Source: a virus | Virus record (IMG/VR): IMGVR_UViG_3300042887_004758 | Span: 32,001 to 96,000 of that record | DNA: 64,000 nt | Strand: one strand, 5' to 3' | Part shown: in pieces, positions 5,802 through 55,138 of the stretch | How positions within the stretch are numbered: position 1 is the stretch's first letter | Layout of the letters: every line of letters begins with the position of its first letter | Translations under genes and position numbers: made by a program | Notes under the pieces: generated by a model | What the model saw: the letters and a program-made list of their open reading frames with translations, nothing else | What the model was told of the DNA's origin: nothing | Database searches by the model: none

Positions 5802-8585
5802 TCAATTGAAATTATATTTCAAACTAAAATTGACATTTGATCCCATCCTTGTTTCTTGCCATCTGTTGTCCCCTTCATCCAATTTTTCATTACCGTTAAG
5901 GTCTTGGAACATCACCAAATCTTGTGAGAGTAAATCTCTAACATTAAATTTCATTTCAATATTTCCGAATTTTTTGGAAACCTGAAGATCAATCAAATTT
6001 CGCCCATTTTCCCAAACCGATGGTTCTTGAATATTTCCGACGATGAAGATTCTCGGACCGACCATATTGTAACTTGCGGAAACATTCCAATTATTTTGTG
6101 TGTTATATAACAAACCAAAGTTATAAACATAAGGTGATTGACCCTGTAATGGTCTTCCATTTTCAGATCCCTCAAATCCATTCAAATCAACTTCAGATTG
6201 AACCAATGAAACATTGGATGTAAGATTTAGATTGTCAATCAGATTTATTTTACCTTCAAATTCAATACCTCTGATAAACGCACTTTCAACATTCGAATAA
6301 TAAATCTCTGGTGCCCCTGAAACACCAGTTCTATTAATCAATTCAATTGGATTGGTTAAGTTCTTGTTGAATATCGAAATAGAAAAAATCTCATTTAAAT
6401 CGGGATAAAACTCAAACCTTACTTCTTGGTTATTTATTTTTGTTCTTTCTAAATATGGATTTCCTGTGATGATATTATCTTGAATAAAGTTGTAGAAGGT
6501 GAAGGGTGCGAGTTCTCTAAATTCAGGTCTTGAAACACTTGAATATACGGACGACCTAAGTTGGGTCTTTTCATTTATTGTATAAACAAAATTGAATGAA
6601 GGTAAGAAGTCAGTTATATTACTATTAATATGAATTGGTTTATTTGAACCAAATTCTGTGTAGAAAAAGTTTTGATTGTAATTTTCAATTCTTACACCAT
6701 AGATAAATCTGAATGATTTATATTTTGTATCAAATGATGTATATCCCGCCCCTAATGTGGAGTTTGCATTATAACTATCATCCACATTGGTTGATTCATC
6801 TAATTTAAAACCACCCATCCCATTGTCCAATAGTCCCATATTTTCTTGTGAAAAAATCTGACTTGGATCCAAAAGAAGTAATGAACTATCAAAATAACCG
6901 TTTTGTGGTTTGTATTGTGAATAACCTAAGTTACGAGAGATAAAATTTCTATCTCTGTGTTGATACATCCCACCTATCTTCACTTCATTTTCAAATGAAC
7001 CGAGTGTTATATTTCTTGACCAATCTAATTTTCCTGAATATAGATCTTCATCAGAATAAGACCAAAACATATTTCCCGCTGCGGTGGGGATAGTTCCATT
7101 TGATTGTATTACAGCAGTATATTGTGTATTTGGATCATCTTCATTCAAAGAATATTTTCGGTAAACTATTCTTCTTAAGTTTGGAATATCTCTTCTAACA
7201 TTGTTGTAACTCAAATTCCAATTCAACTTTGAATTTATGATGTTGTGAGTTCCAATTAACTGTTGTGATAAAAAGTTATTTTGTGTATACCAAAAATTTG
7301 TGGATCTTTCCCATTGTCTTGGGTCATTATCCATCTCTCTTACACCTTGTCTTACGTTAATTCTATCTTCAGAATTTATGGTGTAAAAGTTCTTTAATTT
7401 TATGGTATTATTAGGATTTAATAACAAAGAAAAATTAAGAAGACCACTGTTTGCGATATTGTGAACAAAAACTGAGTCATTAAGTTCCATCTTTTGAACA
7501 ACACCCAAACTTTGTTCTTCAAAATCTCTTCTTGTTGTAGTGGTGGTATTAAACTGACTTGAATAATTATAAGCTCCGCTTAAAAGAAGGGTTCTACTTC
7601 CAAATGAATAATTTTTTCCTACTGAATATTGAAAAGTAGAAGATACAGGTGCTTTTCTTGAATATGTTGACCAATCCGTTTGAATCAACGATGCAAGTTC
7701 AGCTCTTTCTTGTTTGGATAAATTTACAAACTCAGAAGTGTTTGGAATATTGTCGGGTAAACATCTAAATTCCGATCCCAACCCAATTGGATCCATCGGA
7801 CTCCCTCTGTAAGTTCCAAAGTCTTGGAAGGTGGTCATCGTGTTGAATGATGTTCCGATCTGAAAATTCTGATATGTCACTTCCTTCGGATCTGTTGTAT
7901 TGATGTTAATTAAACCACCTGAGAATTCACCAGAGAGATCAGGTGAGGACGATTTATTAACATACAAGTTGTCAATCATATTGGAAGGAAACAAATCAAA
8001 TGAAAATGCTCTTCTATCTGATTCGGTTGAAGGGAGAGGAGTTCCATTGATATAAGCGAAGTTATATCTATCGTTTAAACCCCTGATAATAACAAATTTA
8101 TTTTCTTGTATTGTTACACCCCCAACTCTTTTGAATACATCGGATGCTTTAGCGTCGGGTGTTTTACTAAAAACCTCTGAAGAAACACCATCAATAACTG
8201 ATGCTGATCTTTTTTGTAAAGCAATCATCTGTGTTGCAGATTGTTGATTTGCCTGAGCAACAACTGTGGCCTCACCTATTTCCAAAAAGACGGGGTTAAG
8301 AGATACATCAACAACCCCACTTTTTCCAACCATATTTATACTTTCAACTGAAGTGTCATAACCGATAAAACTGAATCTAACATTATAAACCCCTGAAGGA
8401 ATATTTTGAATTGAGAAGTTTCCATCAAGGTCACTCATCGTCCCTTTACCTAATTCCTCAATATATACCGTTGCACCAATCAACGACTCCCGTGATTGAG
8501 AGTCGTTGACCGTGCCAGATAAATTATATTGTGAAAATAAACAAAAAGGTAAGAATAAAAATATAAATAAGTTGAAGTATTTCAT
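5802..8585 (-). CDS. TonB-dependent outer-membrane receptor (Bacteroidota type)
   Basis: Signal peptide, carboxypeptidase-regulatory-like N-domain (LIGATV, FSFIGY), plug (IIRGLNDRYN), barrel motifs SRPEFRELAPF and GNPYL, terminal YNF. Confidence 0.93.
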   Translation of the reverse strand: MKYFNLFIFLFLPFCLFSQYNLSGTVNDSQSRESLIGATVYIEELGKGTMSDLDGNFSIQNIPSGVYNVRFSFIGYDTSVESINMVGKSGVVDVSLNPVFLEIGEATVVAQANQQSATQMIALQKRSASVIDGVSSEVFSKTPDAKASDVFKRVGGVTIQENKFVIIRGLNDRYNFAYINGTPLPSTESDRRAFSFDLFPSNMIDNLYVNKSSSPDLSGEFSGGLININTTDPKEVTYQNFQIGTSFNTMTTFQDFGTYRGSPMDPIGLGSEFRCLPDNIPNTSEFVNLSKQERAELASLIQTDWSTYSRKAPVSSTFQYSVGKNYSFGSRTLLLSGAYNYSSQFNTTTTTRRDFEEQSLGVVQKMELNDSVFVHNIANSGLLNFSLLLNPNNTIKLKNFYTINSEDRINVRQGVREMDNDPRQWERSTNFWYTQNNFLSQQLIGTHNIINSKLNWNLSYNNVRRDIPNLRRIVYRKYSLNEDDPNTQYTAVIQSNGTIPTAAGNMFWSYSDEDLYSGKLDWSRNITLGSFENEVKIGGMYQHRDRNFISRNLGYSQYKPQNGYFDSSLLLLDPSQIFSQENMGLLDNGMGGFKLDESTNVDDSYNANSTLGAGYTSFDTKYKSFRFIYGVRIENYNQNFFYTEFGSNKPIHINSNITDFLPSFNFVYTINEKTQLRSSVYSSVSRPEFRELAPFTFYNFIQDNIITGNPYLERTKINNQEVRFEFYPDLNEIFSISIFNKNLTNPIELINRTGVSGAPEIYYSNVESAFIRGIEFEGKINLIDNLNLTSNVSLVQSEVDLNGFEGSENGRPLQGQSPYVYNFGLLYNTQNNWNVSASYNMVGPRIFIVGNIQEPSVWENGRNLIDLQVSKKFGNIEMKFNVRDLLSQDLVMFQDLNGNEKLDEGDNRWQETRMGSNVNFSLKYNFN

Positions 8586-51959: not shown

Positions 51960-53720
51960 TTAAGAGAAGTGTTCCGTAATTAAATTTAAGATTTCTTCGG
52001 CCACACTTCCGTCATCAACATTATCCCCCATAACGGTTTCAAAAATATCTTTTTTCTTGGTTAGAATATCATAAATCGCACCTTCAATCGTATTTTCAAA
52101 GATCGGATAATAAACGCTGACTTTGTTGTTTTGTCCAATCCTGTAAGCCCTGTCCTCAGCTTGAGAATGATCTGACGGGACAAATGATAGGTCGTTCATT
52201 ATCACCACCTCGGCGGCGGTTAAGGTAATACCGACACCGGCAGCTTTTAAATTTCCGATAAAAACTTTAACATTTTCATCGTTTTGAAATTTGTCCACCG
52301 CTTCTTGTCTCTTTGTTTTGGAACAAGATCCATCAAGATAAACACAATCTTTTTTGTAATAATCCACAAACTGATTTAAAGTGTCGGTAAAATTGGTAAA
52401 GATAATCACCTTTTTTTCCTGATCTATTGCCGAGTTTGCAATTTCTATTGTATTTTGTATTTTTTCTTGGGCGATTATCTGTCTGACCTTCATTAATTTG
52501 GAGAACTGAAGTGCCAAAGATTTGGATTCCTCACTATTTCTATACCACTCATAATATTCACCCATCAAACTCTTATATAAGTTGGATTGTAGATTCAAAT
52601 AGACGGGTGTTCTAATTTTATCGGGAAGATCCAAGATGTCTTCTTTTAATCTTCTTAAGATGGTGGGTTGAGTTCTTTCTCGGAGTTCTTCAAGATTTGA
52701 TGCTCCGTTTACATTCCATATCAACCTGTTTCCTGCTCTGAATTGAAATCCGTTACAATACCTTCTTACATATGCCATCCAATTTTGAGCAACGGAAGAG
52801 TCAACCAACTCCAAAAGGTTAAAATAGTTAATCGGTCTTGAGGTAAGTGGGGTTCCTGTAAGCAACCAAACCCGACCAATTTTTTCTGCCACATCATTAC
52901 AAAGTTTGGTTCTCGCTGCTTTTTTATTTTGAATATAATGTGCTTCATCAATAATAACCAAATCAAAGTTTTCTTTAAGAATGGTAGAGTTTTCTCTATT
53001 TGATTCATCGTGGAAGTTTTTGATGATATCATAATTTACAATTACATAATCAGCACTTTCCCACTTTTTCCCTTCAACTATTGATATGGTTTTATCGGTA
53101 TAGTTTTTAATTTCTCTATACCAATTGATCTTCAAAGAGGCGGGACAAATAATTAAAACCTTCTTGGATTCAACTTCCAAAGATGCAATTACTGTTGAGG
53201 TTGTTTTTCCAAGACCCATATCGTCAGCCAATATAAACTTATCATTAGAAACCAATTTTTCGATTGCGATTTTTTGGTGTTCCATAGGTGGTCGGACAGA
53301 ATACTTATCATAGTCTATTTTTACCTCTTTTTGTTTCTTCAACAAACTGGCTTTTGGTAAATAGAAGTCGTGTAAATCTTCACTTTCAAAAAACTTCCCC
53401 CACACATGAAACGCCTTATCACCCTCAACCAATAGTTTTTCAATATAAACTTGTTTTGGTGGTTCGGATAATAATTTATCAAGAAATATTTTCTCTGAAA
53501 AATAAAAATCAATATCAACCCACTTTCTGGCGACCTTTGGGGTTTTGTCGTGGTTTTCTAAAATATATGTCGCTTGGTTTTTGGAGATCTTAAAGTTCTT
53601 TTGATTTTTTGAACTTTTTTTTAATTTCAGGATATAATTATTGGAACCTTCATAGGTGTCCAAAATTGACATCGCCTTAACTTCAGGCAAATTATGTGTC
53701 TTGGATGTTTTTTCTCCCAT
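51960..53720 (-). CDS. SNF2-family helicase (SMARCAL1/HARP-like)
   Basis: ADDMGLGKT, DEAH, LTGTP, GITLTAA, QAEDRAYRIGQ. Confidence 0.92.
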   Translation of the reverse strand: MGEKTSKTHNLPEVKAMSILDTYEGSNNYILKLKKSSKNQKNFKISKNQATYILENHDKTPKVARKWVDIDFYFSEKIFLDKLLSEPPKQVYIEKLLVEGDKAFHVWGKFFESEDLHDFYLPKASLLKKQKEVKIDYDKYSVRPPMEHQKIAIEKLVSNDKFILADDMGLGKTTSTVIASLEVESKKVLIICPASLKINWYREIKNYTDKTISIVEGKKWESADYVIVNYDIIKNFHDESNRENSTILKENFDLVIIDEAHYIQNKKAARTKLCNDVAEKIGRVWLLTGTPLTSRPINYFNLLELVDSSVAQNWMAYVRRYCNGFQFRAGNRLIWNVNGASNLEELRERTQPTILRRLKEDILDLPDKIRTPVYLNLQSNLYKSLMGEYYEWYRNSEESKSLALQFSKLMKVRQIIAQEKIQNTIEIANSAIDQEKKVIIFTNFTDTLNQFVDYYKKDCVYLDGSCSKTKRQEAVDKFQNDENVKVFIGNLKAAGVGITLTAAEVVIMNDLSFVPSDHSQAEDRAYRIGQNNKVSVYYPIFENTIEGAIYDILTKKKDIFETVMGDNVDDGSVAEEILNLITEHFS

Positions 53721-53763
53721 AACGTAATAAAAAATAGTTTATTTTTGTGTATTTATCAATAAT

Positions 53764-54237
53764 ATGAAAGACCTGATCAAAAAAATATTAAAAGAGGAAA
53801 CATCAGATCTCAAACCCGCATTGATTAAAGCATTCTATGGTTTCATGGAAATGGAGACACAAGGTTATGAGATTTATGTTGATATTCCTGAAAACAGATT
53901 TAGATACAATCCTGAGTCCATTTGGATCATCAATCCAAAGACCAAAGGATGGATTATAGGATTACTAAAATCAGGAAAACTTTGGTATTATGGCCCACTT
54001 TACGACAATTTTTTAAATTGGTTTAATGAGGAACGTTCTGTATTTGAACAACTTATAAGGATGTGGGTGGAGGACGTTCTCAAAAGAGGGGTATTAACAA
54101 TTCCGGTCCCAATGCCGGCAGCGATCCGTTCGGTGGGGGACGTTCTCAAAAGAGGGATATTAACAACACGGTTTCACTTCGCTCCAGGGGACGACCGGGT
54201 GGAAGACGTTCTCAAAAAAGGAATTAAAATATCATGA
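53764..54237 (+). CDS. Small protein with IKKILKEE leader and in-frame CRISPR-like array at the C-terminus (paralog A)
   Basis: TATTTAT at 53750; clear paralog of 54234; C-terminus VEDVLKRG x3 at a 22-aa period. Confidence 0.8.
   Translation: MKDLIKKILKEETSDLKPALIKAFYGFMEMETQGYEIYVDIPENRFRYNPESIWIINPKTKGWIIGLLKSGKLWYYGPLYDNFLNWFNEERSVFEQLIRMWVEDVLKRGVLTIPVPMPAAIRSVGDVLKRGILTTRFHFAPGDDRVEDVLKKGIKIS
54066..54233. CRISPR. CRISPR-like mini-array: 3 x 36-nt repeats, 2 x 30-nt spacers, inside a CDS
   Basis: R1 54066-54101 GGTGGAGGACGTTCTCAAAAGAGGGGTATTAACAAT; S1 TCCGGTCCCAATGCCGGCAGCGATCCGTTC; R2 54132-54167 GGTGGGGGACGTTCTCAAAAGAGGGATATTAACAAC; S2 ACGGTTTCACTTCGCTCCAGGGGACGACCG; degenerate R3 54198-54233. 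Confidence 0.65.
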
Positions 54238-54641
54238 AAGACCTAATCAAGAAAATATTAAAAGAGGAAACATCGGATATCAAACCGTCTTTGATCAGAG
54301 CATTCTATACTTTCATGGAGATGGAAATGGAGGGTTATAACATTTATGTAGATACTCCTGAAAATAGATTTGAATACAATCCTGAATCCATTTGGATTAT
54401 AAATCCAGACACTAAAGGATGGATTATAGGATTTAAAAGGTTCGGAAAACTTTGGTATAACACTCAACTTTACGAAAATTTTTTAATTTGGTTTAAGGAG
54501 GACAAATCTGTATTTGAACAACTTATAACGATGTGGGTGGAGGACTTTCTAAGAAGAAAAGTGTCAACAATACGAATGATTTACACCGATATGAATCCCG
54601 AGGTGGAGGACGTTCTCATTACAGGAATTGAACTACAATGA
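54234..54641 (+). CDS. Small protein with IKKILKEE leader and in-frame repeat-spacer-repeat unit (paralog B)
   Basis: ATGA coupling to paralog A; high similarity over the first ~100 aa. Confidence 0.8.
   Translation: MKDLIKKILKEETSDIKPSLIRAFYTFMEMEMEGYNIYVDTPENRFEYNPESIWIINPDTKGWIIGFKRFGKLWYNTQLYENFLIWFKEDKSVFEQLITMWVEDFLRRKVSTIRMIYTDMNPEVEDVLITGIELQ
54536..54637. CRISPR. Degenerate CRISPR-like repeat-spacer-repeat inside a CDS
   Basis: R 54536-54571 GGTGGAGGACTTTCTAAGAAGAAAAGTGTCAACAAT; S ACGAATGATTTACACCGATATGAATCCCGA; R 54602-54637 GGTGGAGGACGTTCTCATTACAGGAATTGAACTACA; period 66 nt. Confidence 0.5.
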
Positions 54642-55111
54642 AAGACTTAATCAAAAAAATTTTAAAAGAGGAAACAGAAGAGGTATTGGTAATACCGGGT
54701 TTTAATATTTTTCTTGATGGTGAAGAAGGATTACTTAATTTTTTGAGAAAATACGGTCATAAAAAATGGTCATTTAATGATGATTTAGATTTTTTCAACA
54801 GAAAAATTCTTGTAACTCTTTTTGATAACCCTGAAGACCTAAAATATTTAAATAATTTGGTTGATGTTTATGGTGAACTTGATCTTTATAGGGTTAAAGA
54901 TTTAAAAAGTTTAAATAATTTAAAACGTGTGTATGGTAATATGGATATTCGTGGAACTTCAATCACATCGTTAGATAGTTTGGAATATGTTGAAGGTGCT
55001 TTAAGGGTTAATTCAAAACTTATTGAACCAATTCTTGAACGAATAAAGTCAGGGAAACTTAAAGTTGAGGAACTATATCATTATTTCGACCAAGTACCAC
55101 TACCCGAATAA
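54638..55111 (+). CDS. IKKILKEE-leader protein with LRR/receptor-L-like repeats
   Basis: LKYLNNLVDVYGELDL / LKSLNNLKRVYGNMDI / ITSLDSLEYVEGALRV. Confidence 0.75.
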   Translation: MKDLIKKILKEETEEVLVIPGFNIFLDGEEGLLNFLRKYGHKKWSFNDDLDFFNRKILVTLFDNPEDLKYLNNLVDVYGELDLYRVKDLKSLNNLKRVYGNMDIRGTSITSLDSLEYVEGALRVNSKLIEPILERIKSGKLKVEELYHYFDQVPLPE

Positions 55112-55138
55112 AAAACTTATTTTCAATATTTATAGTGT

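Follow-up and report, generated by a model that had tools for sequence, protein, structure and literature searches.

Repeat-insert arrays at the end of a phage gene family

The gene at positions 54234–54641 (plus strand) of the viral DNA analysed here ends in an array of direct repeats around a unique insert, which has the geometry of a CRISPR array and evolves under selection on its translation. The window, i.e., the whole stretch of 64,000 nucleotides (nt) under analysis, corresponds to bases 32001–96000 of IMG/VR record IMGVR_UViG_3300042887_004758, which totals 109,981 bases and has a completeness of 36% according to CheckV. The open reading frame (ORF) in question, paralog B, encodes 135 amino acids (aa) and consists of a 101-aa core, to which a single repeat-insert unit and a terminal repeat are attached. 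Immediately upstream, paralog A (157 aa; 53764–54237, plus strand) carries a two-unit array (54066–54233) with inserts of 63–67% guanine plus cytosine (GC). In the family to which both paralogs belong, units are gained, lost and shuffled, and the inserts of the window's clade are foreign DNA of coding-like composition. The whole is probably a CRISPR-type array that at the same time serves as coding sequence and gains units by capturing foreign coding DNA.

Paralogs A and B are 68% identical over residues 1–101 and 83% identical over 300 nt of DNA. In B, the core opens with a 5′ leader (MKDLIKKILKEET; 54234–54272, plus strand) shared with paralog A and also with the next ORF, an unrelated one, and continues through residue 101 (54273–54535, plus strand); AlphaFold2 (AF2) predicts an alpha/beta fold with no known relative for this part. 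A preliminary description of the region had placed a 36-nt repeat, a 30-nt unique spacer and a 36-nt terminal repeat behind the residues MW, ending at the next ATG, and all of these are present on the plus strand, the two repeats reading VEDFLRRKVSTI and VEDVLITGIELQ. In the register as refined below, B comprises repeat 1 (54536–54571), the insert (54572–54601; peptide RMIYTDMNPE, 43% GC) and the terminal repeat (54602–54637). The latter encodes the C-terminus and leads into an ATGA overlap (54638–54641), the TGA stop codon of B (54639–54641) overlapping with the start codon ATG at 54638 of the ORF that follows; an ATGA overlap also joins A to B. Five copies of the approximately 36-nt repeat occur at a spacing of 66 nt within each array, three in A (54066, 54132 and 54198) and two in B (54536 and 54602), in agreement with the one unit described for B versus two for A. 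A 23-nt core of the repeat gives four matches at no more than three mismatches, compared to none in 100 shuffles, and no further repeat copies were found elsewhere in the 110-kb record. The substitutions that had been listed as synonymous or conservative (GAG/GAA, CTC/CTA, GTA/GTG, GGG/GGA, R/K and V/I) can all be found, alongside the non-conservative changes E>G, V>F, G>K and KR>IT. Both repeats of B are degenerate, with six to eight mismatches against the clade consensus in repeat 1. Across the clade, the base ahead of the repeat is a G in 54 of 59 inserts and the last base of the original 36-mer is fully variable; the repeat is therefore shifted one base upstream, with ...ACAAC as its end. 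The first insert base is the fourfold-degenerate site of a Thr codon. Since a 36-nt repeat and a 30-nt insert together amount to 22 codons, each unit adds a helix-forming repeat of 12 residues and an arbitrary peptide of 10 residues.

The family extends far beyond the window. A word-based search yielded 110 homologues, the lengths of which step by 22 aa (113, 135, 157, 179; 124, 146, 168, 190, 212), and a profile search of 1.84 billion representatives yielded 416 clusters at 50% identity, many of them 300–600 aa long. As DNA near-identical to that of the window was also present in lake or freshwater metagenomes (at least 18 runs from 17 studies), these arrays are not a one-off oddity. In the tails of the homologues, the repeat VEDVLKRGVSTT alternates with unlike 10-residue stretches, which are reused in differing combinations and positions, and the number of units ranges from zero to more than 20. 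The stepwise lengths and the unrelated inserts substantiate the initial picture of a conserved core of about 100 aa followed by a hypervariable C-terminus of variable copy number. At the DNA level, we gathered 52 loci of the window's clade and two more distant subfamilies, with repeats VEEVLNCKVNTT (L009, L046, L047 and L054) and VEDTIQNGVKET (L059–L073), both in the same 36 + 30 layout. Repeats measure 36 nt, and inserts are exactly 30 nt long in 59 of 63 cases in the window's clade and in 21 of 21 and 57 of approximately 100 cases in the two subfamilies. A single contig carries up to eight tandem gene-plus-array modules (L030) and a single ORF up to 21 repeats (L066). An insert of 31 nt in one widespread module (L005:1193–1295, and likewise in L006, L007, L008 and L013–L015) puts the terminal repeat out of frame and alters the protein end; with 87% identity versus 99.7% for its core, it diverges far faster than the latter.

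Judged by the way the sequences vary, the array is very likely translated. A stop codon in the frame of the gene occurs in one of 63 distinct inserts of the window's clade, compared to 14, 21, 14, 14 and 6 inserts in the other five frames, while base composition predicts stops in 34% of inserts (P = 2e-10 for one in 63). The sole in-frame stop stems from a family locus with barely recognisable repeats and stops within its inserts (L043:389–1300), which looks like a set of pseudogenised modules. In the two other subfamilies, in-frame stops are found in 0 of 21 and 0 of 57 inserts, versus 4–15 and 20–35 in the other frames. The sample is not biased in this respect, because loci were found via the core and repeats were located at the DNA level. 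Variation among 78 distinct internal repeats is 3-periodic and falls mostly at third codon positions (positional entropy of 0.58 at codon position 1, 0.56 at position 2 and 1.06 at position 3), and the 12-aa repeat peptide is kept across subfamilies with cores just 30–45% identical. Variants of retained inserts comprise eight synonymous and six non-synonymous single changes; as about one fifth of the possible changes are synonymous, this corresponds to a ratio of non-synonymous to synonymous polymorphism (pN/pS) of about 0.2. Insert peptides contain 2.9-fold more Trp and 1.7-fold more Asn than expected, with Leu, Ala, Ser and Val at 0.6–0.7 of expectation, and are not a neutral sample. The earlier suggestion that the array is translated and subject to protein-level selection has thus gained support from stop depletion, repeat periodicity, pN/pS and the deep conservation of the repeat peptide, and the frequent spacer stops against which it had cautioned were not encountered. 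The array may have an additional role at the RNA level. Two RNA libraries contain contigs from the locus, one of 152 nt that is identical to 54369–54514 and one of 205 nt on 53793–53996; they cover cores only and may reflect DNA carry-over.

The AF2 model of paralog B (37 aligned sequences; mean predicted local distance difference test score (pLDDT) of 75) has a confident alpha/beta core, of which repeat 1 forms the end of the last helix (residues 91–109). Repeat 2 is modelled as a short helix and the insert between both repeats as disordered (pLDDT < 50). For a member with nine repeats, a confident core is followed by a tail with a pLDDT of approximately 35 and one short helix per repeat, which speaks against a regular solenoid for the array. 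A fold search of the PDB with the core gave no match, and its BFVD neighbours are all uncharacterised proteins of uncultured phages. Pfam, PHROG and ESM Atlas contain no family for the core, and a tblastn search against cultured phages gave no match.

Growth of the arrays and origin of the inserts

Loci L039 and L033, with cores that are 90.7% identical, share three inserts at the far end of the array without a single base change. L039 contains two further inserts on the core side, preceded by exact copies of its first repeat, as well as one extra internal insert. Long arrays generally have core-proximal repeats that are identical in nucleotides and distal repeats that are decayed. Terminal repeats are degenerate, and their 3′ half has diverged in every module. 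The pattern of L039 and L033 is the mode of growth of a CRISPR array. Units are also shuffled: an insert of paralog A takes the first position in the window and the second one in L012, other inserts occur singly or paired in other proteins, and identical inserts stand at differing array positions beside cores that are 80–93% identical. The insert of B is identical in L010 and L011 (cores 92–99% identical) and unrelated to every other insert, in line with the initial remark that its peptide does not resemble those of A; the proteins nearest to B differ by single conservative residues. Paralog B is an older, fixed member of the family with one unit, and paralog A looks younger.

Pairwise identities among 66 insert strings fall into two groups, either 25–28 out of 29 positions or 18 out of 29 at most, with nothing between them, and the lower group equals a shuffled control. 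The ordinary, gradual spacer divergence that the preliminary description had considered as the opposite outcome is not seen. In L047, L061, L070, L072 and L039, repeats that are identical at every base stand beside unrelated inserts, and all insert positions vary. In the window's clade, inserts have a GC content of 0.57 (0.56 at third codon positions, GC3), compared to 0.32 (GC3 of 0.31) for the cores. Within single inserts, GC content shows a 3-base periodicity (summed range of 184 versus 145.5 ± 10.3 after shuffling; z = 3.75, reached in 0 of 2000 shuffles, p < 0.0005), with control values of z = −0.9 for independent random sequence and z = 2.5 for random 30-mers of a real gene. The phase of this periodicity is evenly spread over the three phases of the ORF (16/19/17). 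Because the periodicity is codon-like and its phase is random, we conclude that these inserts are pieces of GC-rich protein-coding DNA that were inserted regardless of frame. Evolution in place is therefore ruled out for the window's clade, both by the GC3 of the inserts (0.56 versus 0.31) and by the out-of-phase periodicity. The same periodicity within inserts excludes non-templated random synthesis, which a flat base composition had suggested. Given the random phase, the rarity of stops is due to later selection and not to in-frame capture. Localised hypermutation was rejected as well, as shared inserts are conserved as well as their cores or better, with the frameshifted 31-nt insert of L005–L015 as the exception. 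Foreign DNA, once captured, seems to enter protein as novel 10-residue peptides.

The two AT-rich subfamilies have a different signature. The periodicity of their inserts is locked to the frame of the ORF, codon position 3 having the lowest GC content in 38 of 62 inserts, and their overall GC content is about 0.39. Their distal repeats are decayed, and protein-level conservation between phages is seen for longer 'inserts'. We read these as aged arrays.

Candidate mechanism and alternative explanations

The family shares with CRISPR arrays the direct repeats of 36 nt with unique spacers of constant length (mostly 30 nt; the repeats of B being decayed), as well as polar growth with duplication of the first repeat, a degenerate terminal repeat and common mosaic shuffling. 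It departs from them in that the array is coding and under selection as protein, and in that no association with cas genes was found, both phage records being incomplete. On the coding strand, the repeat ends in ...ACAAC on the side away from the core, which reads GTTGT on the other strand. This motif, the 36-bp repeat and the spacers of about 30 bp coincide with the II-C/VI-B class of Bacteroidota arrays. The window also contains a receptor gene of 927 aa with CarboxypepD_reg, Plug and TonB-dependent barrel domains (5802–8585, minus strand), which is host-like and unusual in a phage. This architecture is known mainly from Bacteroidota, and the gene is a hint of a Bacteroidota host. Together, the receptor and the core-distal GTTGT motif suggest a Bacteroidota host with type II-C acquisition.

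In Flavobacterium columnare, GTTGT is common to the leader-distal ends of the II-C and VI-B repeats, which both measure 36 bp; Cas1-Cas2 of the II-C system fills the VI-B array in trans, and approximately half of the new spacers of that array derive from the bacterium's own chromosome (PMC8092290). The phage arrays resemble such type VI-B arrays in their 36-bp repeats, their spacers of about 30 bp, the lack of their own cas1 and cas2, additions at the leader end and transcription from the leader into the array. They differ in that the 'leader' is a coding core, in that the array is in frame and selected as protein, and in that they are phage-borne, with up to eight modules in tandem. As no cas1, cas2 or reverse transcriptase gene was found on the phage contigs, and neither a host array with this repeat nor a protospacer was found, we infer that a host Cas1-Cas2 of Bacteroidota type provides the capture machinery.

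The probable course of events is as follows. Each new unit would enter beside the core and be accompanied by a copied first repeat. The inserts would be 30-bp pieces of GC-rich coding DNA in any frame or orientation, with the host chromosome as the likeliest donor and a Bacteroidota II-C/VI-B-type Cas1-Cas2 integrase of the host, acting in trans on phage DNA, as the likeliest agent. Insertions carrying an in-frame stop would be lost, while the survivors would evolve as protein. The repeats would serve as recombination joints by which units and whole modules are lost, shuffled and exchanged among paralogs and phages. Paralog B would then be an old, fixed product of this process, its single unit comprising a first repeat that has decayed and an insert kept in sister phages. 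As to function, we infer, as a guess, an early or injected protein with a disordered tail that may present a changing set of peptides for the binding of host factors.

A bolder version is tentative, though quite conceivable: a spacer integrase (host Cas1-Cas2 or some other enzyme) may routinely insert pieces of the host chromosome, which phages would use as a peptide library on a folded scaffold, the in-frame survivors being selected, aged and traded, and the array may also yield guide-like RNAs. If true, the inserts are a log of the hosts infected by a phage lineage. If the reading as a coding CRISPR-type array holds, CRISPR-type spacer capture gains a second output beyond immune memory, i.e., new coding sequence. 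It would add a new route to the de novo birth of peptides from out-of-frame foreign DNA, and a new form of targeted protein diversification in viruses beside diversity-generating retroelements.

Several observations weigh against this reading. No protospacer was found in IMG/VR (searched with four inserts) or in INPHARED and PLSDB (searched with arrays), bacterial genomes lying outside the search, and none for any insert in the phage's own 110 kb or in the fetched loci. The insert of B gave no match in IMG/VR, INPHARED or PLSDB, and the few weak matches in PLSDB and INPHARED lie within the core or are at chance level. Cas1, Cas2 and reverse transcriptase are absent from the 110-kb record (36% complete); in the relative that was compared, a 208-kb phage record (71% complete), Cas1 and reverse transcriptase were not found, Cas2 not having been searched there. 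Six ORFs of 585–926 aa that were compared to defence-system models matched helicases only and no cas model. The repeat core occurs in 0 of 185,579 species genomes and, within IMG/VR, in two known relatives only. Rfam provided no CRISPR repeat family above sub-threshold noise, and the hairpin of the repeat is weak and no better than that of shuffled sequences. A phage of 33% GC and a donor of approximately 55% GC form an unusual pairing. Finally, the inserts of the AT-rich subfamilies, which have the phage's own codon-position composition, fit evolution in place and old age equally well.

Among the alternatives, an array with an RNA product fares best. Compact arrays are known from archaeal viruses (PMC6858448), and huge phages carry short arrays without cas1 and cas2, sometimes without an effector, some spacers of which are aimed at the host chromosome (PMC7162821). 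The arrays described here are likewise compact and located on a large phage genome without acquisition genes. A phage mini-CRISPR that supplies guides or repeat decoys for the host's Cas13b or Cas9, directed against rival phages, the host or host immunity, would match the CRISPR geometry, the polar growth and the degenerate terminal repeat, as well as the shared inserts without any change beside cores that are 80–93% identical. Each module also ends with an ATGA overlap, so the frame might be kept open merely because an early stop would uncouple the next gene in the chain. We nevertheless consider an RNA product, with the frame kept open in this way, improbable as the main explanation. Repeats vary at third codon positions and are conserved as a peptide across deep subfamilies, the variants of retained inserts are mostly synonymous, and old distal units persist as conserved protein segments. 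The viral mini-arrays are non-coding, with repeats that match host arrays and spacers that match rival viruses or host genes where known. Here, four inserts and the whole arrays gave no viral match, and no Cas13b, Cas9, Cas1-Cas2 or host array with this repeat was found for the phage array. Both ideas are compatible, as an array may be coding and still yield an RNA.

Slightly less plausible is an ordinary tandem-repeat protein with a period of 22 residues, in which a 10-residue loop evolves under strong diversifying selection and repeats are homogenised by gene conversion or recombination, without any capture. Tandem repeats within coding genes form a known class of false CRISPRs, which are defined by a lack of spacer diversity (PMC5294841), and the arrays described here share with them the repeat-spacer layout within a translated gene and the absence of cas genes nearby. 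The large and old family, the conservation of the repeat as protein and the plainly frequent recombination between modules suit this explanation, as do the lack of cas genes, host array and protospacer and the inserts of the two subfamilies with the phage's own codon-position composition (GC of about 0.39). Yet, the inserts are mutually unrelated, uniform in length and of foreign composition, and new ones enter at one end, in contrast to the similar spacers of false CRISPRs. A diversifying loop does not predict the gap between identical and unrelated inserts, the exact length of 30 nt or wholly unrelated inserts beside nucleotide-identical repeats. Nor can evolution in place produce a GC3 of 0.56 for inserts of the window's clade against 0.31 for the genome, together with a periodicity that is codon-like but, for two thirds of the inserts, does not match the phase of the ORF.

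Multi-core precursors of the cyanobactin PatE type combine a conserved front part with short, hypervariable cassettes, which vary in number and are flanked by repeated motifs. The phage proteins have a comparable build, with a conserved N-terminal part, 12-residue motifs around variable 10-mers in changing copy number, up to eight tandem paralogs (L030) and a tail predicted to be disordered by AF2. A precursor of released or modified peptides, with a leader, recognition sequences and cores, is nevertheless very improbable: the putative leader is modelled as a folded domain of about 90 residues with the first repeat contributing to its last helix, the modules here and in related loci are not flanked by a protease or modifying enzyme (they adjoin an SNF2 helicase gene, a leucine-rich-repeat-like ORF and structural genes), the cores have no recurring reactive residues and, apart from extra Trp, are composed like out-of-frame foreign DNA, and a precursor supplies no source for the inserts. 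A diversity-generating retroelement is not indicated either, as the 110-kb and 208-kb records gave no RVT_1 match, no further repeat copy was found in the 110 kb and variation affects all insert positions instead of template adenines only. The array fails a defining feature of each of its nearest known counterparts, the non-coding mini-arrays and the false CRISPRs, and we found no description of such a translated CRISPR-style array in the papers searched on translated or in-frame CRISPR arrays, CRISPR-like hypervariable phage proteins, mini-arrays and false CRISPRs.

The cassette site and the phage

Modules in the window are located at a variable site (53721–55138) between an SNF2-family helicase gene (51960–53720, minus strand), which forms its conserved left edge, and a gene of 170 aa. 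The helicase and structural genes that flank this site are 97–100% identical to those of the window in L006, L008 and L011, the helicase gene itself being 99% identical, while the adjoining modules differ in number and sequence: these loci contain one or two modules that are just 68–93% identical to those of the window. Another variant of the site is present on a lake metagenome contig. Downstream of B, the next ORF (157 aa; 54638–55111, plus strand) combines the shared 13-aa leader with an unrelated, leucine-rich-repeat-like body and has no array; this gene varies too (71% versus 97%). The near-identical 39-nt gene start MKDLIKKILKEET is thus found three times in a row (53764–53802, 54234–54272 and 54638–54676), on two paralogs and one unrelated gene, and it also heads an unrelated protein of 331 aa (P0111). 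Many different metagenome contigs join at this leader, which resembles either a joint between cassettes or a targeting tag that includes an L-x-E site. Given the mosaic arrays and the divergent modules between near-identical flanks, recombination seems to use the 5′ leader and the repeats as joints. Cassettes travel between paralogs and phages.

T4-type internal-protein loci are hyperplastic sites, the genes of which share an N-terminal capsid-targeting sequence. The cassette site resembles them in its short, near-identical leaders on unrelated bodies, in tandem at a site that varies between near-identical phages, and the phage has a Gp23-type capsid protein. We know of no array-like tail at T4-type internal-protein loci. 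Approximately 25 nt upstream of the start of paralog A, the sequence TATTTTTG (53728–53745) fits the Bacteroidota −7 promoter box, TAnnTTTG; a clear −33 TTG was not seen at the proper distance from it.

Among the proteins of the record are a major capsid protein of the Gp23 type, a family-B DNA polymerase and a tail sheath; the closest cultured relatives of the sheath are from Microcystis, Synechococcus and Flavobacterium myoviruses (approximately 31–35% identity). Based on these proteins and the relatives of the sheath, we assign the record to a large T4-like phage. Adjoining the helicase gene, a superoxide dismutase is fused to a C-terminal domain of approximately 260 aa (50409–51935, minus strand). 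The family-B DNA polymerase ORF (904 aa; 46232–48946, plus strand) matches a homing-endonuclease model at residues 140–247 approximately, a stretch that may be an inserted mobile element.

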